Shown here: positions 35,283-59,502 of the stretch, in pieces
Layout of the letters: every line of letters begins with the position of its first letter
Position numbering within the stretch: the stretch's first letter is position 1
NCBI GenBank assembly: GCA_024274785.1
Contig: JAJSAM010000026.1
Coordinates: 47,048 to 111,047 of the forward strand
From: Planctomycetota bacterium
Lineage (GTDB): Bacteria > Planctomycetota > JAJSAM01
DNA: 64,000 nucleotides
Direction of reading: 5' to 3'
Position numbers and translations under genes: made by a program
The notes under the pieces: model-generated
Told to the model about the DNA's origin: nothing
Database searches by the model: none
Seen by the model: only the letters and a program-made list of their open reading frames with translations

Positions 35283-35390
35283 GCCGCAATGGAGGGGCGA
35301 CCTCCGGGCGACCGTGCTGGCGGTCCGGGAGCGTCACGCAGAATCTGCGAGCGCCGCGAAGATTCTGAACGTCAGTACTGCAGGGAGACG
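35283..35390 (+). repeat. Intergenic repeat family 2, copy 1, immediately upstream of the OmpW-like gene.
   Basis: About 90% identical to 59399..59502 (GCCGCAATGGAGGGNCGACCTCCGGGCGAC.GTGCTGG.GGTCCGGGAGCG.CACGC.GAATCTGCG.GCGCCGCGAAG.TT..GAACGTCAGTACT). Confidence 0.75.
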
Positions 35391-35393
35391 ATC

Positions 35394-35930
35394 ATGAAGC
35401 GATTGGCCATCCTCGCCGTGGTGTTCGGTCTTGCCGCCTGCTCCGTCACGCCGAGCGAGTTTTCACGTTCCGGTCTCTATGCCGGGGCTTCCGTGATCGG
35501 TGCCGCTTCGGACTTCGACAACATTTCTGTCGTGGACGATCTCGACAAGGTCGACTACACCGCGGGCATCGGCCTCCGCGGCGGATACCGGTTCCTGGAT
35601 CGTTTTGCCATCGAAGCCGCTTACGAGGGGGGGATGGACTGGCGGAAGCACGACGTCAGGATGCAGACCATCGCCCTCCAGGGGAAGGTCTACCCGCTCA
35701 CCGGCGCGGTCCAGCCGTATGGTCTGATCGGCGGTGGCTACGCTTCGGGGAAGGTCTCGGGTACCAACCTGGATGACCGTGCCGCATTCTGGCGCCTCGG
35801 TGCCGGCCTCGAGGTCTACATCCTTCCGTTCCTGCCGCTGTTCTTCGAACTGGACTATACGTTGCCGACCGGCGACCTCTCCGATCTGCCGTACGCCACC
35901 GGCCATCTCGGAGCGCTGTTCCGCTTCTGA
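35394..35930 (+). CDS. Small outer-membrane beta-barrel protein (OmpW/OmpA-like), probable lipoprotein.
   Basis: The start MKRLAILAVVFGLAACS has a GGGAG Shine-Dalgarno. The sequence shows alternating hydrophobic beta-strand patterning and a C-terminal aromatic residue (LFRF). Confidence 0.65.
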   Translation: MKRLAILAVVFGLAACSVTPSEFSRSGLYAGASVIGAASDFDNISVVDDLDKVDYTAGIGLRGGYRFLDRFAIEAAYEGGMDWRKHDVRMQTIALQGKVYPLTGAVQPYGLIGGGYASGKVSGTNLDDRAAFWRLGAGLEVYILPFLPLFFELDYTLPTGDLSDLPYATGHLGALFRF

Positions 35931-36033
35931 GAGCGGCATCCCGCGCCAGGTTCATGATGCCGGATCCTGCGAATTGAATCCGGCACGATGACGGGGTCCG
36001 CGTCCGCAGGCAGCGAACCCCGACTGACCCCTT

Positions 36034-37608
36034 TCAGTCCAGCGTGTACGTCGTCGGGCGCAGGATCTTGCCCTCGGCGAGTTGCTCGCGCTCCCATTTC
36101 ACGAAGTCCGACCGGACGCCCATCACGTGGGAAAAGCGCTGGGAGTAGTGGACGATGTCCTTCTCCATCAGATCGTCGGAGAGTTCGCGGTCCTTTTTCT
36201 TCAGCTCCGGGAGCCTGGCGCGGAACTCCTCGCGGTCCATCGCCTCGAGCTTCTCGACCAGGTCGGCGTAGATCTCCCGGCTCTTCCAGTCGGAGCGGGC
36301 GTTCACGTACCAGTGGCAGAAGACCGCCAGCTTCTCCAGGTAGAGATTGTGGGCATCGTCGAACCGCAGGCAGCTCGCGTCGAAATAGTTGCCCATCGAC
36401 TCGGCCTTCTCGAAATCGATGAGCCCCATGTCCTTGCTGATCGTGTAGCCGGCAGTGCCCGGAAAGGGGTAGAAGAGCGCCCAGCGGAAGCGGCCCATCT
36501 TGATCGTGGCGCAGATGTCGAGCGTTTCCTCGACCTCCTCGCGGGTTTCGGTGGGCAGGCCGATCATGACGAAGGCCGAGGTGTGCAGGTCGTAGCGCTG
36601 CGCGGACTCGAAGCTATCAACGATCTTGTCGTTTTTCATGAACCGCCAGAGCACTTCCTTGCGGACCCGGTCGCTCCCCGACTCGAGGCCGAACTTGGCG
36701 ATCAGGCAGCCTGAATCCTTCAGGGCGAAGGCGATCTCGTCGTCGAAGACCTGCACGTGAGCGTTCACCACGTAGGGGAGGGTCAGGCCCGCGGCCTTCC
36801 AGGCGGCGCAGAACTCGAGGACGAACGCCTTGTCGAGGGTGAAGAGGTCGTCGTCGAAGATCACAGTCTTCAGCAGATCCGGGTAGCGCTCCCTTATCGA
36901 GACGATCTCCTTGAGGATCCGGTCGATGTCGTAGCGGCGCAGGTACTCCTTCCGGCTCTTGCTCCCGCCCTCGTCCTGGTAGAGGTCCACGATCTCCTTG
37001 TTGAAGCAGTACGTGCACTTGAAGGGGCATCCGCGGCTCGTCAGCACCGAGATCCATCCGTTCTTCACGGTGAGGATCTTCTCGATGTCGAAGAGGTCGT
37101 AGTCCTTTTCGGGCATGGCCTTGAGATCGGGGTAGGCGCCGACCGCATTGTGGAAGGTCAGTTCCTCGCTGGTCTTCCTGGTACCGGGAACCGTGGTCAG
37201 GTCGCCGCCGTTTTCCAGCCGCGTCACATACTCGAGAAACGAGTAGTCCGCCTCGCCGACGAACATGAGATCCCACCACGGATCCGCCGCCACCTCGTCC
37301 GGGACCATCGTGCAGTGGACGCCGCCCACCACGATCGGGACCTCGACTCCATGCTCCCGCAGGCCCCGGGCGATCTCGGACGACCAGCCGTACTGCTGCG
37401 TCATCGCCGAGAATCCGATCACGCCGGGCTCATACTCCTCGACCATGGCCCGCACGTCCTCGAGCGTGGGAATCGGCGCCAGCCCCTCGTTCACGTGGAT
37501 CAGGGAAGTCTCGTGGCCCTCGGCCTTCAGAATCCCGCTCATGGCCGCGAGCCCGTGATTGAAGCCCACCGGACAGTCGATGGATGGATAGATGAAGAGA
37601 ACCTTCAC
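36034..37608 (-). CDS. B12-binding radical SAM enzyme (class B cobalamin-dependent rSAM).
   Basis: A GTG start is preceded by GGAGG. The N-terminus is a B12-binding Rossmann domain (VKVLFIYPS...VVGGVH). The radical SAM cluster motif is RGCPFKCTYC. Confidence 0.8.
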   Translation of the reverse strand: MKVLFIYPSIDCPVGFNHGLAAMSGILKAEGHETSLIHVNEGLAPIPTLEDVRAMVEEYEPGVIGFSAMTQQYGWSSEIARGLREHGVEVPIVVGGVHCTMVPDEVAADPWWDLMFVGEADYSFLEYVTRLENGGDLTTVPGTRKTSEELTFHNAVGAYPDLKAMPEKDYDLFDIEKILTVKNGWISVLTSRGCPFKCTYCFNKEIVDLYQDEGGSKSRKEYLRRYDIDRILKEIVSIRERYPDLLKTVIFDDDLFTLDKAFVLEFCAAWKAAGLTLPYVVNAHVQVFDDEIAFALKDSGCLIAKFGLESGSDRVRKEVLWRFMKNDKIVDSFESAQRYDLHTSAFVMIGLPTETREEVEETLDICATIKMGRFRWALFYPFPGTAGYTISKDMGLIDFEKAESMGNYFDASCLRFDDAHNLYLEKLAVFCHWYVNARSDWKSREIYADLVEKLEAMDREEFRARLPELKKKDRELSDDLMEKDIVHYSQRFSHVMGVRSDFVKWEREQLAEGKILRPTTYTLD

Positions 37609-37854
37609 GGAAGCCTCCGGGGTGGTGACCTGGGGGCCCATTCTTGCCCCGAAACGGCCCGGTTTCGAGGGTATTCCTGGCATAATTCGGACACTTATGT
37701 CAAGATTAGCTTCGATACCGAGAGAGCCTGGCCCGCAGCGGGCCGAAAAAGTTGGTTGCCGGAAGTGGCCCCCACTAGGATGTTCGCTTCACCCCCGGCG
37801 ACCGGATCTCCCTGCTTGCAGTCCGGTCCCTAACCACCAATGAGGACGGCTCTT

Positions 37855-38238
37855 ATGGGTGCAGAGCTAAACGACTATCTACCTGTCCTCCTCACGATTC
37901 TCATCGCGGGAGGCCTTGCCGGCGCGTTCATCGTCCTTTCGGCGGTGATCGGCAAGAGGGCGAGGAATGCCAGTCCCCGTCGCGACACCCCCTACGAGTG
38001 CGGCATGCCCATCATCACCGATGCGCATTCCCGCTTCTCGGTGAAGTTCTACCTCGTGGCGATGCTGTTCATCCTGTTCGACATCGAGGTGGTCTTCCTT
38101 TACCCCTGGGCGGTGGTCTTCGACGACCTGCCGGCGACCCTGATCTTCACGGAGATGGCCGTATTCATCGTCATCCTGCTCGCGGGATGGCTCTTCATGG
38201 TGAAGAAAGGAGTCCTCCGATGGGAGAAGGCGGAGTGA
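37855..38238 (+). CDS. nuoA: NADH-quinone oxidoreductase subunit A.
   Basis: LNDYLPVLL...YECG...FLYPW motifs. An alternative ATG lies at 37840. Confidence 0.85.
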
Positions 38239-38759
38239 CGAAGACGACGATCAAGGACGTGAGCGTTTCCGGGCCGGCCCAGGAGGGCGGGTTCATCATG
38301 ACGACCGTGGATGCGGTGATCAACTGGGGCCGCAAGAACTCCATCTGGCCGTTGCCGATGGGGCTCTCCTGCTGCGCCATCGAGTTCATGGCCACCGCAT
38401 CCTCCCGGTTCGACATGGCGCGGTTCGGCGCTGAAGTCGCGCGCTTTTCCCCCCGCCAGGCCGACCTCATGCTGGTGGCCGGAACGATGACCTACAAGAT
38501 GTCCGGCGCGGTGAAGCTGCTCTGGGAGCAGATGGCCGAGCCGAAGTGGTGTATCTCGATGGGCGCCTGTGCCAGCACCGGCGGCATGTTCCGGTCGTAC
38601 CCGGTGGTGCAGGGGATCGACCAGATCCTGCCCGTGGACTTCTACATCCCCGGCTGCCCGCCTCGGCCGGAGATGGTGCTGAATACCCTGATGCAGTTGC
38701 AGAAGAAGATCTCGAGGGAGCAGCCCCACCTGGACTCGCTGCCCCTGTTTTCGAAGTAG
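38220..38759 (+). CDS. nuoB: NADH-quinone oxidoreductase subunit B.
   Basis: Motifs GLSCCAIE and GACASTGG, then CPPRPE. The start has an AAAGGAG Shine-Dalgarno. Confidence 0.9.
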
Positions 38760-38814
38760 ACCGGTTGACCGGGCGGGAAGGGCGAGTCGGGACGAACCTG
38801 GTGACGAGGAATCG

Positions 38815-39348
38815 ATGGCTGAGGAAAAAGTGAACAAGGGAGTCGCCCTGGTGATGGAGAAGTTCGCGGATGCGGTGGTTTCGCAGCGCGAGTTTCACGG
38901 CCAGGAGTGGGTGACCGTCAAGGCCTCCGCGGTGCATGACATCGCGAAAGCCCTGCGCGACGAGGCCGGATTCGATTTGCTCGAGGATCTGACCGCTGCC
39001 GACTACCTGGACCGGCCCGAGGTCGAGGGGCGTTTCCGGGTCGTCTACCACTTCCTGGCGGTCTCCCGGGCGGAGCTTCTCCGCCTGAAGGCACTGGTGC
39101 CCGACGATACCGTCGAGGTACCGACGCTCTCGGACCTCTACCCCGGAGCCGACTGGATGGAGCGGGAGGTCTACGACATGTTCGGCATCCGCTTCACGGA
39201 TCACCCGGATCTCCGGCGCATGCTGATGCCGGAGGACTGGGAGGGCCACCCCTGCCGGCGCGACTACGATGTCAGGGGGCCGATCCCGATCGAGGATCCG
39301 ATGCGCGAGGGTGACTTCGAGCGAAAGGTCGCCGCGGACCCGTCCTAG
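38815..39348 (+). CDS. nuoC: NADH-quinone oxidoreductase subunit C (30 kDa), encoded separately from D.
   Basis: The sequence block EREVYDMFGIRFTDHPDLRRM is typical of the NuoC family. Confidence 0.85.
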   Translation: MAEEKVNKGVALVMEKFADAVVSQREFHGQEWVTVKASAVHDIAKALRDEAGFDLLEDLTAADYLDRPEVEGRFRVVYHFLAVSRAELLRLKALVPDDTVEVPTLSDLYPGADWMEREVYDMFGIRFTDHPDLRRMLMPEDWEGHPCRRDYDVRGPIPIEDPMREGDFERKVAADPS

Positions 39349-39370
39349 GGACGCGAGCGAGGAGCAGGAA

Positions 39371-40618
39371 ATGGCGGAAGAGAAGACGATCGAAGCTGCG
39401 ATCCCGGAGGCCGACGAGGACGTCCTGGCTTTCGAGCAACAGGTCGATATCGAAGACCACATGGTCCTCAATATGGGCCCGTCGCACCCCTCCACGCACG
39501 GTGTCCTCCTGATCATCCTCACCCTCGCCGGTGAGGAGGTCATCAAGGCCGAGCCCGACCTCGGATACCTGCACCGTGGGATGGAGAAGATCGCCGAGGG
39601 GCATGGCTACCACAAGTTCATCCCCTATACCGACCGGTGGGACTACCTCGCCCCGATCGCGAACAACATGACCTACGTCACCGCCATCGAGCGGCTGATG
39701 GGCGTGCAGGCCCCCGAGCGGGCCGAGGCGCTCCGGGTCATCTGCTGGGAGATCGGGCGGATCCAGAGCCACCTGCTCGGTCTCGGCGCGTTCGCCATGG
39801 ACATCGGGGCACTGACGATCTTTCTGTGGACCTTCCGCGAGCGGGAGCTTCTCTACGACCTGATCGAGCGGCTCTGCGGCGCGCGGTTCACGACGAGTTA
39901 CGCCCGCATCGGCGGGGTGGACCGTGATCCGCCGGCGGACTGGCTTCGGGACCTCAAGGCCTTCTGCACGGAGTTCCCGGATCGCATCGACGAGTACGAA
40001 CTGCTCCTCACCCGGAACCGCATCTGGGTGGATCGGAACCAGGGCGTCGGGGTGATCAGCAGGGAGGATGCGCTGGCCTACGGACTCACCGGGCCGATCC
40101 TTCGCGGCAGCGGCGTCGAGTACGACCTCCGCAAGGAAGAGCCGTATGCCGGTTACGAAAAGTACGAGTTCGACGTTCCGATCGGCAAGCACGGCGACTG
40201 CTATGATCGCTACCTCTGTCGCGTCGAGGAGATGCGGCAGTCGGCGAAGATCATCCTGCAGGCCATCGAGGGACTGCCCGAGGGGCCGGTCATCCTCGAC
40301 GACTACAAGTCCTCCATCCCCGAGAAACAGGGCGTTCTGACGGGCATGGAGCAGCTCATTCACCAGTTCATCGTCATCACCGAGGGGCCGAAGGCCGCGA
40401 AGGGTGGCGAGTACTATTTCCGGGCGGAGAACCCCAAGGGAACGCTGGGCATCTACGCCGTCGGGGACGGGACGAACCATCCTCAGCGGCTGCGGATCCG
40501 GGGGCCCTCCTTCATGAACCTGTCGATCCTTCCGAAGCTCCTGCCGGGGCATATGCTCGCCGACGTGGTGGCTATTCTCGGCTCGTTCGACTTCGTGATG
40601 GGTGAGGCCGACCGGTAG
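39371..40618 (+). CDS. nuoD: NADH-quinone oxidoreductase subunit D (49 kDa).
   Basis: NMGPSHPSTHGVL, GYLHRGMEK and a C-terminal RIRGPSF block. Confidence 0.9.
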   Translation: MAEEKTIEAAIPEADEDVLAFEQQVDIEDHMVLNMGPSHPSTHGVLLIILTLAGEEVIKAEPDLGYLHRGMEKIAEGHGYHKFIPYTDRWDYLAPIANNMTYVTAIERLMGVQAPERAEALRVICWEIGRIQSHLLGLGAFAMDIGALTIFLWTFRERELLYDLIERLCGARFTTSYARIGGVDRDPPADWLRDLKAFCTEFPDRIDEYELLLTRNRIWVDRNQGVGVISREDALAYGLTGPILRGSGVEYDLRKEEPYAGYEKYEFDVPIGKHGDCYDRYLCRVEEMRQSAKIILQAIEGLPEGPVILDDYKSSIPEKQGVLTGMEQLIHQFIVITEGPKAAKGGEYYFRAENPKGTLGIYAVGDGTNHPQRLRIRGPSFMNLSILPKLLPGHMLADVVAILGSFDFVMGEADR

Positions 40619-40651
40619 CGGATCAAGACTTTCTCATTGAGGGCGATTGAG

Positions 40652-41146
40652 ATGGCAGAGGGAAACGGGGTTTTCCCGCCGGATAATCTGAAAGCCGAAT
40701 TCGACGGGATCGTGGCGCGATACCCGAAGAAGACCGCGGCGCTCATCCCGATCCTGATGAGGCTCCAGGAGGAGTTTCAGCACATCACGACCGAGGACAT
40801 GGACGGCCTGGCGGCGTATCTCGATACGACGCCCGCCCACGTGCTCGGGGTGGTGACCTTCTACACGATGTTCTCCCAGAAGAAGCGGGGGAAGCATCAC
40901 ATCTACCTCTGCAAGACGCTCTCCTGCCACATCCGGGGTGCGGAGGAGTTGCTCTCCCTCTTCGAAGAGAAGCTCGGAGTGAAGGCTCACTCCGGCGACG
41001 CCTCCGGGGACGGCGAGTTCTCCATCGACACCGGAGAGTGCCTGGGGCTCTGCGAGCAGGCGCCGTGCGTGCTGGTGGATGACCAGGCGATCGGGAACAT
41101 CACCCCGGAGATGGTGGATCAGATCATCGAGGAGCTTCGAGGATGA
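40652..41146 (+). CDS. nuoE: NADH-quinone oxidoreductase subunit E (24 kDa, 2Fe-2S).
   Basis: CKTLSCHIRG...GECLGLCEQAP cysteine pattern. Confidence 0.85.
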   Translation: MAEGNGVFPPDNLKAEFDGIVARYPKKTAALIPILMRLQEEFQHITTEDMDGLAAYLDTTPAHVLGVVTFYTMFSQKKRGKHHIYLCKTLSCHIRGAEELLSLFEEKLGVKAHSGDASGDGEFSIDTGECLGLCEQAPCVLVDDQAIGNITPEMVDQIIEELRG

Positions 41147-42426
41147 GCCTCAAGCCGACGAATATCCTCCTGAGGGGCATGGAGAAAGAGAGCTCCGCCA
41201 CCATCGAGAACTACATCTCCGAGGATGGCTACAAAGCGCTCGAGAAGGCTCTGAAGGAGATGAAGCCGGAGGAGATCGTCGCGGAGGTGGCCAAAGCCCG
41301 GATCCGGGGGCGCGGAGGGGCGGGATTCGAAGCCGGCCGCAAGTGGGGCTTTCTGCCGAAGGGCGTCGACAAGCCGGTCTACCTGGCCTGCAACGCCGAC
41401 GAATCCGAGCCGGGCACCTTCAAGGACCGGCACATCATGGAGCACTGCCCCCACCGCCTGCTCGAGGGCTGCCTGCTCGCCTGCTACGCCATCGGCAGCA
41501 AGACCGGTTACATCTACGTCCGCGGCGAGTTCCCGGGGGCGCAGCAGTCGCTGTGGCGCGCCATCGACGAGGCCCATGAGAAGGGCTACATGGGCGAGAA
41601 GATCCTCGGCACCGACTTCTCCTGCGAGATCTACGTCCACACCGGCGCCGGCGCCTACGTCTGCGGTGAAGAGACCGGCATGCTGAGTTCCATCGAGGGC
41701 GGTCGCGGCCACCCCCGGCTCAAGCCGCCGTTCCCGGCCGTCGAGGGGCTGTTCCGCTGCCCGACGATCGTGAACAACGTGGAGACGCTCAGTAACGTCC
41801 CGTTCGTCATTCACGAGGGGGCCGACGCGTTCCTGGCGCTCGGGACCGACGATACGCCCGGCCCGAAGCTGTTTTGCGTTTCCGGCCACGTCGAGAAGCC
41901 CGGCTGCTACGAGTTCGAAGCCGGCGCGAACCTGAAGGAACTGCTCGAGCACTGCGGCGGCGTCTGGAAAGGCCGGAAGCTGAAGGGCATCATCCCCGGC
42001 GGGGCCTCGGCCCACATTCTGAAGCCCGACGAGATCGATGTCTCGATGGACTTCGGGAGCATGGCCCGGGCGGGTTCCATTCTCGGATCCGCCGGGATGA
42101 TCGTTTTGGACGAGACGACCTGCATCGTCGAACTGCTCCGGAACGCTCTGGAGTTCTTCGCCCACGAGTCCTGCGGCCAGTGCACACCCTGCCGCGAGGG
42201 CACCGGCTGGGCGAAGAAGATCGTCACGCGTATCGAAGCGGGCGAAGGGACGATGGAGGACATCGACAAGCTCTGGGAGGTGGCGGATAACTTCGAGGGT
42301 ATGGGTGGAAAGACCATCTGCGCCCTCGCCGATGCCGCGGCCTGGCCCACGAAGTCATACGTCGAGAAGTTCCGTGACGAGTTTGAGGAGCACGTGCGGC
42401 TCGGTCGCTGCCCCATGAAGGGGTGA
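41143..42426 (+). CDS. nuoF: NADH-quinone oxidoreductase subunit F (51 kDa, FMN and NADH binding, 4Fe-4S).
   Basis: GRGGAGF and ESEPGTFKDR motifs. The 4Fe-4S motif is CGQCTPCREG. The start forms an ATGA overlap with nuoE. Confidence 0.9.
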   Translation: MSLKPTNILLRGMEKESSATIENYISEDGYKALEKALKEMKPEEIVAEVAKARIRGRGGAGFEAGRKWGFLPKGVDKPVYLACNADESEPGTFKDRHIMEHCPHRLLEGCLLACYAIGSKTGYIYVRGEFPGAQQSLWRAIDEAHEKGYMGEKILGTDFSCEIYVHTGAGAYVCGEETGMLSSIEGGRGHPRLKPPFPAVEGLFRCPTIVNNVETLSNVPFVIHEGADAFLALGTDDTPGPKLFCVSGHVEKPGCYEFEAGANLKELLEHCGGVWKGRKLKGIIPGGASAHILKPDEIDVSMDFGSMARAGSILGSAGMIVLDETTCIVELLRNALEFFAHESCGQCTPCREGTGWAKKIVTRIEAGEGTMEDIDKLWEVADNFEGMGGKTICALADAAAWPTKSYVEKFRDEFEEHVRLGRCPMKG

Positions 42427-42448
42427 GTGCCGATCGCGGAGTGAACAT

Positions 42449-44017
42449 ATGCCGACGCTGACGATTGACGGCAGGGAAATCACCGTCGACCCGGGTACGA
42501 CTGTCATCCAGGCGGCCGAGGAGCTCGGGATCTACATCCCGCGCTACTGCTGGCACCCCGGTTTGAAGATCGCCGGGAACTGCCGGATCTGCCAGGTCGA
42601 GGTGGTGAACCCGAAGCTCAAGTTCCCGTGCACGATCGCCTGCAACCTGATGTGCGGCGACGGTATGGTGATCGAGACGGACTCCGACGAGGCGAAGAAG
42701 GCCCGCGCCGATGTCATGGAGTTTCTGCTGATCAACCATCCGCTCGACTGCCCGATCTGCGACCAGGCCGGGGAGTGCACCCTGCAGGAGTTCTCGTACG
42801 AATACGGCCACGACAAGAGCCGGTTCACCGAAGAGAAGGTGCACAAGTCAAAGCGCGTCCAGTTCTCCGACCAGGTGAGCTTCGACGGCGAGCGCTGCAT
42901 CCTCTGCACCCGCTGCGTCCGGTTCTGCCGGGATGTCGTCGGGAACGAGGAACTCTGCCTCGTCGAGCGCGGCGATCATGAGGAGATCGCCGTGGCGAAC
43001 GGCGGGGGGCTGACGAACCCCTACTCGATGAACGTCATCGACCTCTGCCCGGTGGGAGCGCTGACCTCTTCCGACTTCCGGTTCAAGAGCCGGGTGTGGT
43101 TCCTCGAGGAGACCCCCTCGGCCTGCACCTCGTGCGCCCGCAACTGCGCGGTGGATATCGGCACCCGCTGGGACAAGGTCATGCGGCTCAAGCCCCGCGA
43201 GAACGAGCACGTCAACAAGTGGTGGATGTGCGACGAGGGGCGGCTCAACTACCATTACGTCAACGCCGCCGACCGCCTGGGCTACGCCTACGTGCAGCAG
43301 GGCGGAAAACTCGTCCGCACGAGCGTCGACGATGCTGTGGCGATGGCCCACGAACTCATCGGCAAACTGCCCGCGGAGAAGCTCTACGGCCTCATCTCCG
43401 CGAGGCTCACCAACGAGGAGATCTTCCTCGCCAAGCGCTACCTCGATCAGGTCGCCGGCGCTGCCGGGGTCGGGTTCCTTCCGAGGATCGGCGAGGGCGA
43501 CGACTTCCTCATCAGTGCCGACCGGAACCCCAACGCCCGGGGGGCGGGCCTTATCGGCGTGAGCGCCGCGAAGGGGCTCGCCGCGGACATCAAGGCCGGC
43601 AAGGTCAAGGGGCTGGTGATCTTCGGCGACAGCTTCGATCACGACGAGGAACTGATGGGGGCGCTCGCCGACCTCGACTTTTTGGTGGTGATGGACTACC
43701 GCCTGTCGGAGACCGCGAAGCAGGCCGACGTGATCCTGCCGGGCGTGACGTTCGCGGAGAAGGAAGGCTCGATCACCAACATCGACGGCTGGGTCAGCAA
43801 GTTGAATCCGGCCTTGCCGCCACCCGCCGAAGCGCGCCGGAACCTCGACCTGCTGGCCGGGCTCCTCGGCAGGGCGGGCCAGGACGTACCCGATACCGCC
43901 GAGGGCGTTTTCCGGCTGCTGGCCGAGACCGTTTCGGCGTTCACTGATATCTCGTACGGGGAGATCTTCGCAGCTTCCCGTCAGGTGGCCACGGATGCCG
44001 TGGTCAAGGCCGACTGA
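42449..44017 (+). CDS. nuoG: NADH-quinone oxidoreductase subunit G. This is a short 522-aa form with only the iron-sulfur domains and a reduced molybdopterin-like region.
   Basis: N-terminal 2Fe-2S ferredoxin domain (CWHPGLKIAGNCRIC). CPICDQAGEC and CILCTRCVRFC motifs. Confidence 0.85.
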   Translation: MPTLTIDGREITVDPGTTVIQAAEELGIYIPRYCWHPGLKIAGNCRICQVEVVNPKLKFPCTIACNLMCGDGMVIETDSDEAKKARADVMEFLLINHPLDCPICDQAGECTLQEFSYEYGHDKSRFTEEKVHKSKRVQFSDQVSFDGERCILCTRCVRFCRDVVGNEELCLVERGDHEEIAVANGGGLTNPYSMNVIDLCPVGALTSSDFRFKSRVWFLEETPSACTSCARNCAVDIGTRWDKVMRLKPRENEHVNKWWMCDEGRLNYHYVNAADRLGYAYVQQGGKLVRTSVDDAVAMAHELIGKLPAEKLYGLISARLTNEEIFLAKRYLDQVAGAAGVGFLPRIGEGDDFLISADRNPNARGAGLIGVSAAKGLAADIKAGKVKGLVIFGDSFDHDEELMGALADLDFLVVMDYRLSETAKQADVILPGVTFAEKEGSITNIDGWVSKLNPALPPPAEARRNLDLLAGLLGRAGQDVPDTAEGVFRLLAETVSAFTDISYGEIFAASRQVATDAVVKAD

Positions 44018-44038
44018 AGTCTAAAGGGACACTGACTT

Positions 44039-51816: not shown

Positions 51817-51819
51817 CCC

Positions 51820-52290: not shown

Positions 52291-52369
52291 TCGGAGTCGT
52301 CGGAAAGATCCTCCAGCGTTTTCCTGTTCCACTCGCCACGGCTCCGGCGTGGTCCGGGCTCGCGGCCCC

Positions 52370-52936
52370 TTACGAGTGGCGCTCTTCCTCGAATGGATCG
52401 GCGCTGCTCGAGTAGCCTCGCATCTCCCAGAATCCGGGGCGGTCCTCGGCGATGAACTCGATGGAGCGGACCCACTTGGCGCTCTTCCACGAGTACTTTT
52501 TCGGCAGCACCAGGCGGACCGGGAAGCCGTGCTCCGGGGTGAGGGGTTCGCCGGCGAGGCTGTCCGCCAGCATGGCATCTGGGTCGCGGAGGTCATCGAG
52601 CGCCACGTTCGTCGTGTAGCCGCCGTCGCACTGGATGAAGACGAACCGGGCCGTGGGCATCGGGTGGACGCGGCCCAGGATGTGGGTCATCGAATCCCCA
52701 CCCCACTCGAGGTCGTATCTCGACCAGGTGGTGACGCAATGGAAGTCGGACTTCCGGGTCACCCGCGGAAGCAGCCGGAAGGCGCGATAGTCGAACTCAC
52801 AGGGAGACTCGACGAGTCCTCCGACCCGGAGGTCCCAGGTTTCGGCAGAGAAATGCGGGATGGAGCCCACGTGCAGGACGGGGAGATCCTTCGTCAGGTA
52901 TTGTCCCGGGGGGAGTCGGTCCTTCTGCTCAGGCAT
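52370..52936 (-). CDS. Small cytoplasmic molybdopterin-dependent oxidoreductase of the sulfite-oxidase / YedY-like fold.
   Basis: The start is MPEQKDRLPPGQY. It matches the Mo-binding domain of the sulfite oxidase family (HFSAETWDLRVGGLVESP...CVTTWS). No Tat or signal peptide is present. The track ORF extends 65 aa upstream without support. Confidence 0.65.
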   Translation of the reverse strand: MPEQKDRLPPGQYLTKDLPVLHVGSIPHFSAETWDLRVGGLVESPCEFDYRAFRLLPRVTRKSDFHCVTTWSRYDLEWGGDSMTHILGRVHPMPTARFVFIQCDGGYTTNVALDDLRDPDAMLADSLAGEPLTPEHGFPVRLVLPKKYSWKSAKWVRSIEFIAEDRPGFWEMRGYSSSADPFEEERHS

Positions 52937-53096
52937 GACGGGATTGTATGGAGGAAGTCCCTCGCACCTAGCAAAAGGTTCCCGAATGATCGTTTGACCG
53001 GTCGAGGATTCGATTCTCGTTTGGCAGCCCGGCCATCCGGCCCTACAATCCCTCCATGGGCGAGCAAACACCTCCCACTGACAGCGGGGCAAAGGC

Positions 53097-53672
53097 GTGA
53101 AAAAGGACGAGCGGCTCGGGCAGATCCTCAAGCACGCGGCGCAGGTCTTCTACGACAAAGGGTATGACCGCGCCTCGATCCGGGATATCGCAAGACAGGC
53201 CGATATGAGCCTGGCGGGGCTCTATTACTACTTCCGGTCGAAGGAAGAGCTGCTCTTCCTGATCCAGAAGCACGTCTTCACGGAGTTGCTGGATGCGGTC
53301 CGCGGTGAACTCGAGTCGACGACCGATCCGGTCGGGCAACTCGAGATCTTCATCCGCAACCACCTCCGGTACTTCATCGGCAACCTGGTGGAGATGAAGG
53401 TGCTCAGTCACGAGTTCGAGTGTCTGAAGGGCGACTACCACGACAGCATCGCCGGATTGCGCCGCGACTACTACGAGGTGGCCGAGGGCATCGTCGCGAA
53501 GATCACGGAGGCGGGAGGCGGTACGGAGGTCAAGCCCCGGGTCGCCGTGCTCGGGATGTTCGGGATGATGAACTGGCTCTACACCTGGTATCGCCCGGAA
53601 CTCGATGGCACCGCGGACGACCTCGCTGCCCAGATGAGCGTTTTGTACCAGAAGGGCCTGGCGGCGGGCTGA
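53097..53672 (+). CDS. TetR-family transcriptional regulator.
   Basis: The N-terminal helix-turn-helix (ASIRDIARQADMSLAGLYYYFRSKEEL) is a TetR signature. The start codon is GTG. Confidence 0.8.
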   Translation: MKKDERLGQILKHAAQVFYDKGYDRASIRDIARQADMSLAGLYYYFRSKEELLFLIQKHVFTELLDAVRGELESTTDPVGQLEIFIRNHLRYFIGNLVEMKVLSHEFECLKGDYHDSIAGLRRDYYEVAEGIVAKITEAGGGTEVKPRVAVLGMFGMMNWLYTWYRPELDGTADDLAAQMSVLYQKGLAAG

Positions 53673-53679
53673 GTCACCG

Positions 53680-54552
53680 ATGGGGAAGGTGGTCATTCTC
53701 GACGGAGAGGTGCTCTCCGCGGCCGATGCCCGGATCTCCGTGTTCGACCACGGTTTTCTGTTCGGGGACTCCGTGTACGACGTGGTCCGGACTCGTCAGG
53801 GGGTGCCGTTCCTCCTTCAGCCGCACCTGGCGCGGCTGAAGCGCAGTGCCGTCGAGATCGGCCTCGAGATCCCGGCCACCGACCTCGAACTGACGGAGCA
53901 GGTGGACCGGGCTATCGCCGCGGCCGGTAACGAAGAGAGCTACGTCCGGATCGTCGTGACCCGTGGCGTCGGAGACCTCGAACTCTTCCCCGGCACGTGT
54001 GGCCGACCGACCCTGATCCTGATCGCCCTGCCGCTGCGGCTGCCCGCCCCTCACGTATACGAGCGGGGCATCCGCCTGGCCGTCGTCGACCGCCGCCGGA
54101 ACGACCCCCGGGCGCTCAATCCGGATGCCAAGACCGGGAACTACCTGAACAACGTCCTGGCCATGTCCGAGGCCCGGAAAAGGGGTGCCGACGATGCGGT
54201 GATGCTGAACACCGGCGGTTTCCTGACCGAATTGACCACCGCGAACCTGTTCTTCGTCAGGGACTCCGTGGTCCACACTCCGGCGCTCGACTCCGGCATC
54301 CTGAACGGCATCACGAGATCCCTGGTGATGCGCATGCTCGGGGAGGAGGGGGTGGATTGCCGGGAGGGACGCTACACCCGGGCGGACCTCCTGGCCGCAG
54401 AGGAGGTCTTCCTCACCTCGACGACGCGCGATGCGGTTCCGGTGCGGCAGGTGGACGATCAGGTGATCGGGGAAGGGGCGGCGGGTCCGGTGGCGCGGTT
54501 GCTCTTTGCCCGCTTCGGGGCCCTCACACCACCGACATTCGTCGGGCCGTGA
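53680..54552 (+). CDS. Class IV (fold-type IV) PLP-dependent aminotransferase, of the branched-chain / D-amino acid aminotransferase / ADC lyase family.
   Basis: FGDSVYDVVRT, the catalytic-Lys region, and TGNYL...EAFLT are typical blocks of the family. Confidence 0.8.
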   Translation: MGKVVILDGEVLSAADARISVFDHGFLFGDSVYDVVRTRQGVPFLLQPHLARLKRSAVEIGLEIPATDLELTEQVDRAIAAAGNEESYVRIVVTRGVGDLELFPGTCGRPTLILIALPLRLPAPHVYERGIRLAVVDRRRNDPRALNPDAKTGNYLNNVLAMSEARKRGADDAVMLNTGGFLTELTTANLFFVRDSVVHTPALDSGILNGITRSLVMRMLGEEGVDCREGRYTRADLLAAEEVFLTSTTRDAVPVRQVDDQVIGEGAAGPVARLLFARFGALTPPTFVGP

Positions 54553-56215
54553 TCAGCGAGTAGATCAGCAACGGCAGCGCGATCACACCCATCAGCACCA
54601 GGGAAAGGGATGCCACGTTCGCTTCGTAGGCGATGTGGACCCAGGTGTAGATCTTCATCATGGCGGTGCGGTTGCCGGACTGAATCAGGACGATCGTATC
54701 GAGTTCCCGCAGCGAGAAGATGAAGCCGAGCACGAACCCGGCCGCGATGCCCTTCCAGGCCAGCGGAGAAACCACCGCCACCATCCGGCGCAGCCACGAC
54801 GCTCCGGCGACCGCGGCCGCATCCTCGTAGCGGGGATCGGATCGCTTGATGCTGGTCATGATCGCCGCCAGCGCGAAGGGCAGGTACTTGCCGGCCAGCA
54901 TCACCACGACGATGCCCCAGGTGTCGTAGATCGGGTTGTGCCGATCGATTTCGAGCCAGGTCTGATTCCAGGTGCGGATCAGGCCGGAGCCGAAGAGGAT
55001 TGGCCCGAAGGCCAGCGGCAGGAACGCCAGAACGAAGAACAGCGACTCCCGGCGGGGACCCTTGCGCACCGCGTAATGCCCGATGACGAGGGCGAGCGCC
55101 ACCATGAGGAGTGCGGCGAGGCCGGAGTACTTCAGGCTGTTCAGGAGGTCCATCAGGCCGCCGTCGGTGCTGGGGGCGAGTGCCCGTTTCATGTTGCCGA
55201 TGAAGTCACCCTCGTGGCCGATGGCCATGTTTCGGCCGATCGCGCCCACCACGGTCTGGTAGACCGGGATGCCAACGCTCACCGCCAGGGCCGAGAGGAG
55301 GAAGATGAACCCACCCGTCCGCAGCAGGAGCTTCGTGGCCAGCCGGGCACCCTCCTCCACGTCGCGGGGACGGCGATGGCCGCTCGTGATGCTCGCATAC
55401 CGGCCCTTGCGCAGGAGACGGGCGATCAGCAGCAGAAGCCCGATGGACAATACGGCTACCGGGGCGCAGAGCGCGGCGGCTTCGCGCCGGCCGGCCTGCT
55501 GTACGTAGTTCGTCGAGAACGCGGAGAACGCCTCGAAGGTGTAGGCGTTCACGCGATCCTTCACGGGGAAAATGGTGGAGAGGTAGTCCACCACCGCGAA
55601 GTCGGAAATGGAGAACAGGAAGACGAAGAGCGCCCCGGCCAAGATGCCCGGCGCGGCGAGCGGCAGGGTCACGCGCAGAAATGCCCGCACCGGTCCCCCG
55701 TGCACCCGGGCCGCTTCCTCCAGACCCGCGCCGAGTTCCAGGAATCCCTTGCGGGCGAAGAGCACCACGAAGGGGAAGTAGGAAAGGCCGAACAGGAAGG
55801 CCGAGCCCTTGATGCCGCCGAGGCTCCGCTCCAGGCCGCCGCCGCCGGCGCTGGAATCGCTCTGCGACGTCAGGAACTGGGTCCACCCCATGGCCATCAG
55901 GAGAGGCGGCAGGACGAGCGGCAGGATGTAGACTGCCGAGAAGATCGATCGGCCCGGAATCCGGACCCGCGTGCAGAAGAAGGCATAGGGCAATCCGATC
56001 AGGAGCGCCAGCAACGTCGCCAGGGTGGCGAGCCCGATCGAAGTCCCGAGCACCTTCATGCGGTAGCTCGGCGCAAAGGCCGAAATGTAGTGCGCGAGTG
56101 TGAGCCCACCATCCTCGGACAGGAACGAGTCCCCGACCACGATGAGCACCGGGACCACGCACAGGATGGCGAGAACGAGAATTGCGCCGACGAGGATAGC
56201 CCGCATCCTGTTCAC
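54524..56215 (-). CDS. ABC transporter permease with duplicated transmembrane domains (iron(III) / thiamine FbpB/ThiP-like).
   Basis: A 563-aa protein with two repeats of the binding-protein-dependent permease domain. It overlaps the aminotransferase 3' end by 29 bp (convergent). The plus ORF 54506..56239 is a shadow. Confidence 0.8.
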   Translation of the reverse strand: MNRMRAILVGAILVLAILCVVPVLIVVGDSFLSEDGGLTLAHYISAFAPSYRMKVLGTSIGLATLATLLALLIGLPYAFFCTRVRIPGRSIFSAVYILPLVLPPLLMAMGWTQFLTSQSDSSAGGGGLERSLGGIKGSAFLFGLSYFPFVVLFARKGFLELGAGLEEAARVHGGPVRAFLRVTLPLAAPGILAGALFVFLFSISDFAVVDYLSTIFPVKDRVNAYTFEAFSAFSTNYVQQAGRREAAALCAPVAVLSIGLLLLIARLLRKGRYASITSGHRRPRDVEEGARLATKLLLRTGGFIFLLSALAVSVGIPVYQTVVGAIGRNMAIGHEGDFIGNMKRALAPSTDGGLMDLLNSLKYSGLAALLMVALALVIGHYAVRKGPRRESLFFVLAFLPLAFGPILFGSGLIRTWNQTWLEIDRHNPIYDTWGIVVVMLAGKYLPFALAAIMTSIKRSDPRYEDAAAVAGASWLRRMVAVVSPLAWKGIAAGFVLGFIFSLRELDTIVLIQSGNRTAMMKIYTWVHIAYEANVASLSLVLMGVIALPLLIYSLITARRMSVV

Positions 56216-56322
56216 CTCTTCACGTCGCGCGCCGTATAGTTGGTGGTCGCCGGAGCGGAAGTGACACTCCGGCAGGAGGACGGATAACCTCCAACCGGAA
56301 GTCTATCAGAGGACAGAGCCCC

Positions 56323-57189
56323 ATGCGGAACAAAGCCCTGCCATTCGCACTCGCCGTGATGACCGTGTTCGCCGCCTCCTGCGATTCGGGGGCGGAAAAG
56401 GCCGCTTTCGACAAGTACGAGGCGGCGGTGAGCGACGTCCTCGAGGAGGAGGCCGAACTCCGGAAGCGTTACGAGGAGGAGTTCGCGAACATGCAGGCCT
56501 ACAACAGCCAGGATGCCTTCGACCTGCTCGTGCGGCAGAAGATGATCCCGTTCTACGAGGAGATGAAGAAGACGGTCGGAGCGGTCTCCCCGGAAGGGGA
56601 TGAGTTGAAGAGGATTCACGGTCTGCTCATCCGGTACGCCGGACTTTGCAGCGAGATGGTGAAGCTCGACACGAAGAGTGTCACCATCAGCGAGATGGAG
56701 AAGCCCGCCCTCGATCGCCTGAACAGGGCCATGAGTGAACGGGAAAAGGCCACGCGCGGCTTCAACGACGCGCTCTCGTCCCTCCCCGAACTCATGCAGA
56801 AGCTGGCCGCGATGTTCACCACGGAGCAGCAGGCCGCGCTGACGGTGGTGCAGAGCCTGCAACTCGTCCGGAAGGGGGAGGTCTCCCCGGCGGATTTCCT
56901 GAAGTACCTGGACGATCAGATCGACCCATTCTACGAGAAACTCGTGACCGCTCTCGCCGAACTCCAGGTTTCACCCGCCGAGCAGGCCGCCATGTTGAAG
57001 GCCAAAGCCTACGTGGGCACGACGATGGCCCTCTTCATCGCCGCCCGCGAGATCGCGTCGGTTCGCCCGAAGATGCTCGAGGAACTGGCGCCGCTTCGGG
57101 AACGGCTGGCCGAATTGCAGGTCGAGACGACCGGGCTGCTCGACGACTACCGGAAAGAGGCCCGCGCCTACCGCGACAGCCTGCGCTGA
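56323..57189 (+). CDS. All-alpha hypothetical lipoprotein.
   Basis: Signal peptide with lipobox MRNKALPFALAVMTVFAASC. A coiled-coil-like Glu/Lys/Ala-rich body. Confidence 0.6.
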   Translation: MRNKALPFALAVMTVFAASCDSGAEKAAFDKYEAAVSDVLEEEAELRKRYEEEFANMQAYNSQDAFDLLVRQKMIPFYEEMKKTVGAVSPEGDELKRIHGLLIRYAGLCSEMVKLDTKSVTISEMEKPALDRLNRAMSEREKATRGFNDALSSLPELMQKLAAMFTTEQQAALTVVQSLQLVRKGEVSPADFLKYLDDQIDPFYEKLVTALAELQVSPAEQAAMLKAKAYVGTTMALFIAAREIASVRPKMLEELAPLRERLAELQVETTGLLDDYRKEARAYRDSLR

Positions 57190-57674
57190 CCCGACCCGCA
57201 GCGCGTGGGGCTCCGGGCCAGTGACCTGGTTTGGACCGGCGGGAACACCCCGCTCGCCCGGTACGGCCCGAAGCCCCACGGGCTGCGCATCCTCTACCAA
57301 CGGGAAACCCGACGCAGGGTTCGATCTCCCGCGCGGGCTGGCCGCTTCGAGGTGTGATCTACCCCATCATGGTTCTTGATGAAGGGGGGAGCCCTGCATG
57401 GATGACGTTCGCGATACCAACGTGAAGGTCGATGGCGCGCCGGTGTGGGAACAGTCCGACCCTGCTCCGCCGCGATGGTCCAGGCGCGCTCGCCCCCGGC
57501 ATTGCGCGTCCTCCGGAGGGTGCCGCTCCGGGTCTGGCCCGTTCGTGGTTGGATCCCCGGCTGTGGAGAACGGCCATCGCGATGTCGCGTTCGTCCAACG
57601 TATCCTGAATTGCCGGTAACATCAGCACCAATGCGACGTTCAATAAGGGTGACTGGGACCCGGAGGACCGTGTC

Positions 57675-58916
57675 ATGCCCTTGAAGACCATGTTGATTTT
57701 CGCCATCCTGGCCGGGGTCGTGCTGCCCGCCGCCGCGCAGGATGTCGTGCTTTTGAAGAATGGCGACCGGCTTGCCGGAAAGGTCACCGACGGGATGCTC
57801 GAGGTCCGCCTCGATACGCCCGCCGGCGAGGTGGCCCTGCCCTGGAGCGAGATCGAGAAGATCGACCGCGCGAAGTACGTCCGCGAGCTCTACCGCGACC
57901 GCGCGGGCGAGGTCGATCGCCAGGATGTCCAGTCCCACTACCTCCTGGCCCTCTGGTGCCGTCGCCAGGGACTCGGCGAGGAGATGCGGAAGGAACTGGA
58001 ACTGATCCTCGCCATCGATCCCGGCCACCGGGCCGCCCGCTCCGCCCTGGGCTTTGAGAAGGTGGACGAGAAGTGGGTGGCCGGAGACCAGATCAAGAAG
58101 GCCAAGGGCTTCGTCAAGAAGGGCAACCGCTGGATTCTCGAGGAAGAGGCCGCCTTCGAAGAGATGGTGAAGGAGCGCAACCGGCAGCTCTCCGCCGAGG
58201 AGTTGAAGGCCTCCGATCTGATCATCAAGGCCGCCGACGAGAACGTACGCGCCCGCAAGTACGCCGTAAAGGCGCTCTCCGCCATGTCTTTCAACGAACT
58301 GCGCGTTCCGCTGTACCGCGCGCTTGGCGACAAGCGCGAGGAGGTCCGGGCCGCGGCCGTGGCCGAACTCGGCAAACTCGGCGAGTTCGAGGCGGTGCGC
58401 CCGATGATCCGTACCGCGGTCCTCGATACGTCCGGGATGGTGCGCGGCGAAGCGGTTCTGGCGCTGCGGGAACTGGGTGGACCCGGCACCGTGGTTCCGT
58501 TCATCCGCGCCCTCTCCTCCCCGAATCCCCAGATCCGGATGAATGCCGCGCAGGCGATCGGCGACCTCGGGGACATCCGCGGCGTCGAGTACCTGATCAC
58601 GCAACTCGGCCAGAACTGGGGCCCCACCGGCAGAAACAACATCTCGGTGATGAACCAGGTCTCCTACATCCGCGACTTCGACGTGGAAATCGCCCAGGCT
58701 GCGCAGATCGGCGACCCGATCGTGGGTGTGCTCCGCGAAGGCGTGATCCTCGACGTGATGGTCGTCGGCGTGAGCCGCAAGATGACGACGGTGGAGCGCC
58801 GCTTCATCCGCAAGGCTCTGGTGAAGCTGACCGGTGAGGACCTCGGCGACGGGGAACCGGCCTGGTCGAAGTGGTGGGGGAAGAACAAGGATCGCTTGCT
58901 GGCTGATGCGGATTGA
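57675..58916 (+). CDS. Secreted HEAT/PBS-lyase-repeat protein.
   Basis: The start has a GGAGG Shine-Dalgarno. It has a signal peptide and tandem HEAT-like repeats (EVRAAAVAELGKLGEFEAV...VRGEAVLALRELGGPGTV...IRMNAAQAIGDLGD). Confidence 0.7.
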   Translation: MPLKTMLIFAILAGVVLPAAAQDVVLLKNGDRLAGKVTDGMLEVRLDTPAGEVALPWSEIEKIDRAKYVRELYRDRAGEVDRQDVQSHYLLALWCRRQGLGEEMRKELELILAIDPGHRAARSALGFEKVDEKWVAGDQIKKAKGFVKKGNRWILEEEAAFEEMVKERNRQLSAEELKASDLIIKAADENVRARKYAVKALSAMSFNELRVPLYRALGDKREEVRAAAVAELGKLGEFEAVRPMIRTAVLDTSGMVRGEAVLALRELGGPGTVVPFIRALSSPNPQIRMNAAQAIGDLGDIRGVEYLITQLGQNWGPTGRNNISVMNQVSYIRDFDVEIAQAAQIGDPIVGVLREGVILDVMVVGVSRKMTTVERRFIRKALVKLTGEDLGDGEPAWSKWWGKNKDRLLADAD

Positions 58917-58992
58917 AGCAGGCCTCCCGGGTCTTGCCTGTATTCCTCACCATGCGAACGGCCTGAGGGGCGGTCGCGGCTCATCGCCGGAA

Positions 58993-59043
58993 GGTGCCCC
59001 GGACTTCCTGGTGCCCCGGATTTCTTGGCGCCCCGGGCCTTCA
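58993..59043 (+). promoter_or_regulatory. Three tandem 17-bp direct repeats (GGYGCCCCGGRYYTYCT) upstream of the small basic protein gene.
   Basis: GGTGCCCCGGACTTCCT, then GGTGCCCCGGATTTCTT, then GGCGCCCCGGGCCTTCA. They lie about 40 bp upstream of the 59084 start. Confidence 0.4.
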
Positions 59044-59083
59044 TCACTAAGATCGGCGCTTTCGTCGACTGGAGGGCGGAGAA

Positions 59084-59290
59084 ATGTCCGTACACAAGAG
59101 TCTGAAGGTCCGCGGGATGCTGGTTCGCGCGCGCAACGTCATGACCCGCGCCGAACGCATCGCGATGATGGAACAGAACCGCACCTGGAATGAAGGTGAC
59201 GCGGTCTACGGCCTGCCGAAGACCAAGGTTCCGAAGATCAAGAGGGGCGGCAAGAAGAAGAAGAAGGAAGAAGAGAAGGAAGAAGAGTAA
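59084..59290 (+). CDS. Small (68 aa) lysine-rich basic protein of unknown function.
   Basis: A GGAGGG Shine-Dalgarno 7 nt upstream and strong GC3 bias. The C-terminus is KRGGKKKKKEEEKEEE. Confidence 0.55.
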   Translation: MSVHKSLKVRGMLVRARNVMTRAERIAMMEQNRTWNEGDAVYGLPKTKVPKIKRGGKKKKKEEEKEEE

Positions 59291-59347
59291 GGGCCCGTCT
59301 GGAGTTAACTGCCGCATTCGAGGGCCGCTGCATCCCGTCGTCCGTCA
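59291..59347 (+). repeat. Intergenic repeat family 1, copy D. It is a 5' fragment only (left terminal inverted repeat plus the first core block).
   Basis: GGGCCCGTCTGGAGTTAACTGCCGCATTCGAGGGCCGCTGCATCCCG matches the first 57 bp of copy B. It then diverges into unrelated sequence. Confidence 0.7.
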
Positions 59348-59398
59348 TTCCCCCTGCCCCGACTCGCTGCAATCTGAATCTCCGCGCACTGCTGCCCG

Positions 59399-59502
59399 GC
59401 CGCAATGGAGGGTCGACCTCCGGGCGACTGTGCTGGTGGTCCGGGAGCGCCACGCCGAATCTGCGTGCGCCGCGAAGGTTTCGAACGTCAGTACTACAAG
59501 AT
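59399..59502 (+). repeat. Intergenic repeat family 2, copy 2.
   Basis: About 90% identical to 35283..35390. Substitutions are spread across codon positions. It lies between convergent genes. Confidence 0.75.

Follow-up and report, generated by a model that had tools for sequence, protein, structure and literature searches.

A lineage-restricted, non-coding repeat of about 106 bp, probably placed by insertion, abuts gene ends in a Planctomycetota genome

Introduction

The window analysed here, a 64,000-nucleotide stretch of DNA from a Planctomycetota bacterium, contains the same short segment at two places, which raises the question of whether this repeat is a mobile element, an RNA, a small gene or the leftover of a rearrangement. 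We refer to it as family 2, to distinguish it from another repeat of the window, family 1. The reading that we favour, with moderate confidence, is that family 2, about 106 bp long, is a non-coding interspersed repeat that is restricted to its lineage and was placed by insertion, as a small non-autonomous mobile element or its relic. Insertion is suggested by the sharp ends of the element, by its presence at a third, unrelated locus, by its absence from the orthologous sites of relatives and by homology of neighbouring genes that stops at the element edge.

Copies and boundaries

Copy 1 (35279..35385, plus strand, about 106 nt) scores 131.8 bits against a covariance model, and copy 2 (59395..59501, plus strand) was recovered both by this approach and as a BLASTN match to copy 1. 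The two agree at 93 of 104 ungapped nucleotides (89%, BLASTN E 2e-35), and 8 of the 11 differences are transitions. These values confirm a sequence-only reading of this DNA, which had described two copies of ~105 bp with ~90% identity and had located both correctly, apart from a 5' end that was off by 4 nt. The ends are sharp on the 5' and the 3' side and coincide in both window copies to within a few bases. Outside of them the flanks are dissimilar, as semi-global scores compared with shuffles gave no significant similarity either in the 37-49 nt upstream (p=0.35) or in the downstream flanks (p=0.59), and a candidate extension of the match upstream of 35279 was rejected as not significant.

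Within the window, BLASTN with word size 7 detected no further or degenerate copy, and a covariance model built from the two copies and run with filters off detected no further one. A weak model match at 33886-33975, which mirrors copy 1 across a neighbouring transposase unit, was discarded, as it has no sequence similarity to the element. With the copy on another contig described below, at least three copies of family 2 are known, all about 90% alike.

Sites of the three copies

Copy 1 lies between a transposase unit and an outer-membrane gene. It starts 37 nt from the unit (34035..35241, plus strand), which carries a RAYT-like Y1 transposase gene (34145-35188) flanked by inverted repeats of 34-65 nt that are its own (34035-34099 and 35177-35241) and differ from family 2. 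The possibility that family 2 is part of this unit was rejected: homology with the related locus L016 stops at the inverted repeats of the unit, and L016 has no family 2. The words CTCCGGG and TGAACGT, which the transposase repeat shares with family 2, are within chance by estimate, and TGAACGT is not kept in the L017 version of the transposase repeat. On its other side, copy 1 runs up to a beta-barrel gene (PF13505; 35394..35930, plus strand) with a lipoprotein-type signal peptide, whose Shine–Dalgarno (SD) sequence, GGGAG (35383-35387), sits at the 3' edge of the element. The start at 35394 is supported by the length of the database protein and its orthologs (178-181 aa), and homology with the relative L008 begins at GGGAGACGA, that is, at the SD and element edge. 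The sequence-only reading had placed copy 1 in the leader of an OmpW-like gene; the leader position is right, but the Pfam matches are to OMP_b-brl and, weakly, to the OmpA transmembrane domain, and not to OmpW. The related possibility that family 2 belongs to the leaders of envelope genes is not supported, since only copy 1 precedes a gene, copies 2 and 3 being at gene 3' ends, and since the leaders of the barrel orthologs in L008 (66% aa identity) and L011 (52%) show no trace of the element, by alignment or by model match.

Copy 2 lies, as had been proposed, between convergent genes: a small basic protein gene upstream (TIGR04137; 59084..59290, plus strand; 84% identical to the L012 gene) and pdxA (59494..60393, minus strand). 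On the minus strand, pdxA ends inside the copy, the last 7 nt of which (59494-59500) provide the closing Leu codon and stop of this gene. The homology of PdxA to its counterpart in the relative L012 stops at ...VRNR, exactly at the edge of copy 2; thereafter the window protein ends in IL*, which comes from the element, and the L012 protein in three other residues, RQS*, as read from DNA. L012 has no family-2 sequence; downstream of its small basic protein gene stands a classical terminator, a hairpin plus a T run. The promoter-plus-gene cassette of the small basic protein is inverted in the window relative to L012, and copy 2 sits at the rearrangement junction and marks this local inversion.

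The gap before copy 2 also contains a truncated family-1 element, namely its first 47 nt (59291..59337, plus strand; 94% identical to 20771-20817), which begins on the base right after the small basic protein stop codon and is followed by a 57-nt spacer (59338..59394) unrelated to families 1 and 2. From the stop codon to copy 2, the DNA is unusually unstructured (z +2.75). The family-1 fragment had been reported at 59291 and 50 bp from copy 2, as part of a composite; the position stands, the spacing is 57 nt, and the composite is real as geography but statistically uncompelling, with a chance of roughly 15-30% for a shared gap, an estimate based on the number of family-1 copies (four) and of sizeable gaps between genes (about 25). 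Because the site is a rearrangement junction, the pile-up is better explained by that than by a designed composite. Kinship of family 2 to family 1 was rejected as not significant, and so was a relation of the spacer, or of the HEAT-sbp junction, to either family.

When the element was compared in six frames with 5.8 billion proteins, a third copy emerged on another NCBI contig, where it is fused to an unrelated gene, that for protein P0007, at the 3' end. The last 32 residues of this protein, PAAMEGRPPGDRAGSPAASRRICERCEDCERQ*, correspond to the translation of the element in the frame of its plus-strand ATG, with 4 amino-acid changes, and the 5' end of the copy coincides with that of the window copies as far as the peptide shows. 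Homologs of P0007 stop ~3 residues past its residue 227, so that a tail of about 38 residues is an add-on; judged by its peptide sequence, this tail is element-derived.

At all three sites, the element thus lies directly against the outermost conserved base of an adjoining gene, and two of the three copies supply the final codons and stop of that gene. Once inserted, the element would be transcribed together with its neighbours, copy 1 in the 5' leader of the barrel gene, and copies 2 and 3 in the 3' tails of the small basic protein gene and the third gene, respectively. Its three stem-loops could work there as 3'-end or stability structures, as those of other bacterial intergenic repeats do. 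If the insertion reading is true, a poorly studied phylum gains a further family of small interspersed repeats, and the three sites show insertions that are tolerated only directly at the ends of genes: in one case a stop codon is replaced, in another a protein acquires a tail, and in a third the element makes up the entire leader of a gene for an outer-membrane protein. No long-standing question is opened by it.

Distribution outside the window

Family 2 appears to be narrowly distributed. A search of the window against Rfam gave no match at the gathering threshold, and the surroundings of copy 1 had none even when hits up to E 10 were allowed. A core-pattern scan of 185,579 representative genomes returned 7 hits, all attributable to chance, which matched the 24-nt pattern only; a mixed pattern scan of JGI metagenomes returned 0 hits; plasmids and phages gave no match; and pattern scans of viral contigs gave a single chance hit. 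The element is absent from the orthologous sites in both comparable relatives, and the covariance model found no copy across some 60 kb from relatives (L008-L011, L012 and L016-L018). A hit of 18.8 bits in L017 was rejected because of its position within a MoeA gene. With aa identities of 66-84%, the relatives used for comparison are distant, and the absence of the element from them therefore also fits a young lineage-specific RNA gene.

Stem-loops and the RNA reading

Each window copy can form three separate stem-loops. H1 (U-GGAGG / GGCGA / CCUCC-G; 35290..35306 in copy 1, 59406-59422 in copy 2) differs between the copies only at one position of its loop. H2 (GACCG / UGCUGG / CGGUC; 35310..35325 and 59426-59441) has two differences, each of which yields a G.U pair on the plus strand; in copy 3, one of its pairs is probably broken, judging from a Gly-to-Ser change. 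H3 (CAGAAUCU / 13-nt loop / AGAUUCUG; 35339..35367 and 59455-59483) is a perfect 8-bp stem in copy 1; in copy 2, two of its pairs are G.U and one is broken. The motif GGAGG-N5-CCTCC that underlies H1 occurs exactly twice in the window, once per family-2 copy (expected 0.18); the sequence-only reading had assigned this hairpin to both repeat families, but it is absent from family 1.

These features suggest as an alternative that the copies are paralogous small RNA genes or a cis-acting RNA module that arose by duplication, with the three stem-loops under selection; an SD/anti-SD hairpin (GGAGG...CCUCC), for example, might control the translation or stability of neighbouring messages. Several observations are in line with this proposal: folding favours the plus over the minus strand by 6.5-8.5 kcal/mol, the four single stem differences are all G.U-compatible on the plus strand only, all three copies are co-oriented with an upstream gene, and the element is the first stable structure past the small basic protein gene, given the unstructured stretch between. 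However, the folding energy is no better than that of shuffled sequence (z -0.6 and +0.2), the covariance check found no compensatory double changes between the window copies, in which one pair is even broken, and Rfam has no match for the element. Neither a sigma-70-like promoter nor an intrinsic terminator (GC-rich hairpin plus T run) was found in or next to either window copy, although a terminator does follow the same small basic protein gene in L012. Moreover, the element is not conserved at orthologous sites, and two unrelated open reading frames extend into it and have their ends altered by it, which points to insertion rather than to a gene of its own. We therefore regard the RNA reading as unlikely.

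Duplication and coding alternatives

The copies might also be scars of recombination or duplication, that is, leftovers of segmental duplication or gene conversion at rearrangement junctions that have neither mobility nor function of their own. The location of copy 2 at the junction of the inverted cassette, beside a truncated family-1 element, fits this explanation, as do the short distance of copy 1 from the transposase unit and the low known copy number. Yet random scars should vary in extent, and the window copies share both end points, with the 5' end of copy 3 in agreement; in addition, nothing else is duplicated around the copies, and their three contexts are unrelated. On this evidence, we consider a scar very doubtful.

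Both window copies contain an ATG (35289 in copy 1, 59405 in copy 2) that heads an open frame, as had been observed from the sequence, and this frame is open in all three copies. Its course differs at each site: it continues into the barrel gene from copy 1, extends for another ~40 codons from copy 2 and terminates at ...ERQ* in copy 3. The 11 differences between the window copies are spread 4/3/4 over the codon phases, in agreement with the earlier statement that substitutions show no third-position bias, and pN/pS lies between 0.48 and 0.70 across the three forward frames, so that none is distinguished. The earlier preference for a DNA or RNA element over a peptide is thus supported by the even phase spread, the flat pN/pS and the three different ends of the frame. 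A small conserved protein of about 35 aa (MEGRPPGD...) is accordingly highly improbable, in spite of the shared ATG and open frame, as the pN/pS of the ATG frame (0.48) is not below that of the others (0.56-0.70), copy 3 has accumulated amino-acid changes, the ATG has no preceding SD, with GGAGG coming only after it, and the 5.8 billion proteins hold no such family apart from the P0007 fusion tail. In annotation, the open frame should be called neither a gene nor an N-terminal extension of the barrel protein.

Ends of the element and a possible mode of movement

Under the favoured reading of family 2 as an inserted repeat, its ends bear on how it might have moved. There are no terminal inverted repeats, the ends CCCRGCCGCAATGG and GTCAGTACTRCARG not being complementary, and no overall dyad symmetry; an integron attC-like or other whole-element palindrome was rejected for the same lack of complementarity, and no inverted repeat ≥10 nt occurs in 59200-59600. 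Nor is there a target-site duplication, as the flanks contain no direct repeat (GCGCGA / GAGACG for copy 1, CTGCTG / ATGCGG for copy 2). H1 and H3 lie 12 nt from the 5' end and 18 nt from the 3' end, respectively, with stability not above shuffled sequence. A C precedes the shared CCC in both DNA copies (n=2), where it is inseparable from the element itself. GC skew is positive across the window, and both window copies are on the G-rich strand.

Movement as single-stranded DNA by an enzyme of the HUH/Y1 type, in the 'peel and paste' manner of IS200/IS605, would be more likely than the action of a DDE transposase, because terminal inverted repeats, target duplication and dyad are all missing, the stem-loops are subterminal, and the window copies, two in number for this orientation argument, share the G-rich strand. 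A more specific proposal is that family 2 represents an undescribed kind of oriented PVC miniature element that a Y1/HUH enzyme recognizes by its subterminal stem-loops and moves in single-stranded form, with a preference for gene ends, where it rewrites last codons and gives new UTR structure; this remains speculative and, taken as a whole, quite unlikely.

Relation to known repeat families

Among the closest parallels are IS200/IS605-derived miniature elements (PATEs), which likewise lack both terminal inverted repeats and target duplication. PATEs have stem-loops slightly inside each end, and H1 and H3 lie in comparable positions, although they are no more stable than shuffled sequence. The strand-specific pairing, the shared G-rich strand of the window copies and the presence of a Y1-family gene in the genome also match HUH-Y1 'peel and paste' movement. 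However, neither a transposase nor an autonomous parent (tnpA, alone or with tnpB) that has matching ends was detected in the window or the relatives' loci compared, and the sole Y1 gene in view is bracketed by other repeats, so that membership of family 2 in PATEs is not established.

Miniature inverted-repeat transposable elements (MITEs), which DDE transposases mobilize, carry terminal inverted repeats and usually target duplications. Family 2 resembles members of this class, such as Correia, ERIC, RUP and the family 1 of the window, in size (~100-160 nt), intergenic location and low divergence, and in that co-transcription and fusion to the ends of open reading frames are possible; it differs in having neither terminal inverted repeats, which family 1 does have, nor target duplication. 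Rickettsia palindromic elements (RPEs) are small repeats that are tolerated in-frame in genes, palindromic and often gene-internal. The fusions at the P0007 tail and the pdxA end recall them, but family 2 is not palindromic, has no sequence relation to RPEs and occurs in a different host phylum.

Finally, family 2 shares with REP and BIME sequences that it is extragenic, non-coding, equipped with stem-loops, near stop codons and beside a RAYT-like gene. REPs are single imperfect palindromes of 20-40 nt with a GTAG or CGTC head (PMC3733652), and RAYT transposases include a type flanked by terminal inverted repeats, 'TIRYT' (Di Nocera et al, 2013, PMC3733652). By comparison, family 2 is 106 nt long, with three separate short stem-loops and no palindrome, and the repeats that really flank this RAYT-like gene belong to another family. 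GTAG occurs on neither strand of family 2, and its one CGTC (35332-35335) reads CGCC in copy 2.

Distribution of family 2

The best-supported reading of family 2, a repeat of ~106 nt, is that of a lineage-restricted, insertion-derived interspersed repeat, which would make it a new family within a known general kind of element. The sequence-only reading had described two near-identical stretches, and both were recovered after a coordinate correction of four bases: copy 1 lies at 35279-35385 and copy 2 at 59395-59501, both on the + strand. They align without gaps at 89% identity (BLASTN E 2e-35), with 11 differences over 104 nt, 8 of which are transitions. Similarity stops sharply at either end (37-49 nt upstream, p 0.35; 45 nt downstream, p 0.59; both against shuffled sequence), and no further copy was found in the 64-kb window by BLASTN with 7-nt words or by a covariance model with filters off. 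The host is a member of the PVC group and probably a verrucomicrobium; G+C is 64.6%. GC skew is positive across the window, so both copies are located on the G-rich strand. The motif GGAGG-N5-CCTCC occurs only twice in the whole window (0.18 expected), once in each copy; the same hairpin had also been ascribed to family 1, a separate repeat family of the window, but is absent there.

Copy 1 is flanked by a RAYT-like Y1 transposase gene (34145-35188) and a PF13505 beta-barrel gene (35394-35930, +), and copy 2 by a small-basic-protein gene (sbp, TIGR04137; 59084-59290, +) and convergent pdxA (59494-60393, -). Searching all six frames of both copies against 5.8 billion predicted proteins returned a single match, P0007, a 268-aa protein encoded on another NCBI contig (184,970 bp). 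The 32 residues at its C-terminus, PAAMEGRPPGDRAGSPAASRRICERCEDCERQ*, correspond to the translation of the ATG-headed frame of family 2 with four amino-acid changes and represent copy 3. In a library of 1.84 billion proteins, homologs of P0007 stop about three residues past its residue 227, which identifies ~38 residues as an added tail whose end and stop codon come from family 2. Apart from this C-terminal tail, P0007 is lipoprotein-like, and its domain, which has no Pfam match, is widespread and also found C-terminally in very large proteins (2,000-3,000 aa). At the nucleotide level, the core pattern of family 2 gave 7 matches in 185,579 representative genomes, all limited to the 24-nt pattern and without related sequence, and 0 matches in JGI metagenomes; no related sequence was detected in viral contigs, or in plasmids and phages by BLASTN.

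Folding and coding potential

Three short stem-loops are possible in family 2 (in copy 1, H1 at 35290-35306, H2 at 35310-35325 and H3 at 35339-35367), and folding of the + strand is favoured over that of the minus strand by 6.5-8.5 kcal/mol. These features could suit a small or cis-acting RNA family, which we nevertheless consider unlikely. Folding of the two window copies does not surpass that of shuffled sequence (z -0.6 and +0.2), Rfam gave no match even at E 10, and no sigma-70-like promoter or intrinsic terminator was found in or beside either window copy. The stems of H2 and H3 take 6 of the 11 differences: four single transitions each leave a G.U pair on the + strand, a double change disrupts one pair, and compensatory changes between copies 1 and 2 are absent. 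One H2 pair is probably broken in copy 3 as well, judging by a Gly-to-Ser change. The fold favoured by RNAalifold differs in part and includes a long-range stem that likewise depends on G.U pairs. Just upstream of the copies, 59285-59400 (z +2.75) and 35185-35285 (z +2.34) fold worse than 200 of 200 shuffles and are unusually unstructured.

Family 2 is non-coding, as had been proposed in preference to a peptide. Its differences are spread 4/3/4 over the codon phases, and pN/pS is 0.48-0.70 across all three forward frames, so that the ATG-headed frame (0.48) is not distinctive and a small protein is highly improbable. A long frame running from 35226 through copy 1 was also rejected as an N-terminal extension of the barrel protein, because a length of 178-181 aa and a signal peptide at the start are common to the identical database protein and all orthologs, in agreement with a gene start at 35394.

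Proposed insertion sites

The suggested role of family 2 as an envelope-gene leader is not supported, since barrel-gene orthologs at two related loci, L008 (66% aa identity) and L011 (52%), have leaders unrelated to that of the window. In L008, homology sets in from the ribosome-binding site, GGGAGACGA, and this site coincides with the 3' edge of copy 1.

For copy 2, the related metagenome contig L012 encodes counterparts of the window's small basic protein (84% identical) and PdxA (78% identical), and contains neither family 1 nor family 2. Homology ends at the sbp stop codon, where a truncated family-1 copy starts, and within PdxA at ...VRNR, after which the window reads IL* from the last 7 nt of copy 2 and the L012 DNA encodes three other residues, RQS*. 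The classical hairpin-plus-T terminator that follows sbp in L012 is missing from the window. The gene order is pdxA(+), sbp(+), HEAT-repeat gene (-) in L012 and HEAT(+), sbp(+), pdxA(-) in the window, which indicates inversion of a promoter-sbp cassette with respect to the flanking HEAT-repeat gene and pdxA (window about 59008-59290; L012 about 1265-1546). Its putative promoter, TTGGCG-N17-TAAGAT, is conserved with L012; at 58993-59036, 2.6 tandem copies of a 17-nt unit (GGTGCCCCGGACTTCCT) overlap its -35 region.

With such a rearrangement beside copy 2, a recombination scar might be considered, but we regard it as quite improbable. All three known copies touch a gene's last conserved base and two of the three rewrite a gene end, the hallmark of inserted DNA tolerated only at harmless positions.

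Family 1 comprises elements of ~160 nt whose terminal inverted repeats of ~15-24 nt (GGGCYCGTCTGGAAA...) make them MITE-like. Its copies lie at 12762-12925 (-), which is inverted and may be missing from the sequence-only list, 20771-20933, 27791-27950 and 59291-59337; two start at or directly past a stop codon (12765, 59290). The proposed family-1/family-2 composite is a real juxtaposition, but may be no more than two repeats in one permissive gap that has been rearranged: only 47 of ~160 nt remain of the family-1 piece, the spacer is related to neither family, and with four family-1 copies among ~25 sizeable gaps, we estimate that chance co-occurrence is not unlikely.

Possible mobilisation and the neighbouring RAYT unit

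Neither terminal inverted repeats, flanking direct repeats nor similarity to family 1 were found in family 2. For an element that lacks inverted repeats and target duplications, and has potential subterminal stem-loops and strand asymmetry, single-strand (HUH/Y1-type) mobilisation would be a better candidate mode than DDE-type MITE transposition. No parent element was found in the window or in the related loci compared. Once inserted, family 2 would be co-transcribed with neighbouring genes, and its stem-loops may mark the 3' end of a transcript or contribute to its stability.

The RAYT-like gene next to copy 1 matches NCBIfam REP_Tyr_transpos below the family cut-off (E 8e-11), and its homologs carry the JGI name RayT. 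It is bracketed by its own, different inverted repeats, perfect over 34 nt and 80% identical over 65 nt, so family 2 is not its cognate repeat. These repeats and homology to a related locus, L016, delimit a 1.2-kb unit at 34035-35241, which is 85.6% identical to L016 949-2157; the repeat ends are the exact limits of the homology, and the flanking sequences are different. At another locus, L017 (RAYT 70% identical), the repeat of the unit (~50 nt) occurs in at least 5 dispersed copies within 21 kb. The unit is of the REPtron/'TIRYT' type reported by Di Nocera et al. (PMC3733652). That it lies next to copy 1 is best interpreted as mobile DNA gathering in a permissive gap. Immediately to its left, an ORF at 33408-33965 (-) shows weak similarity to the Hint_2 (intein/hedgehog-like) domain, with an E of 1e-5 that does not reach the Pfam cut-off.
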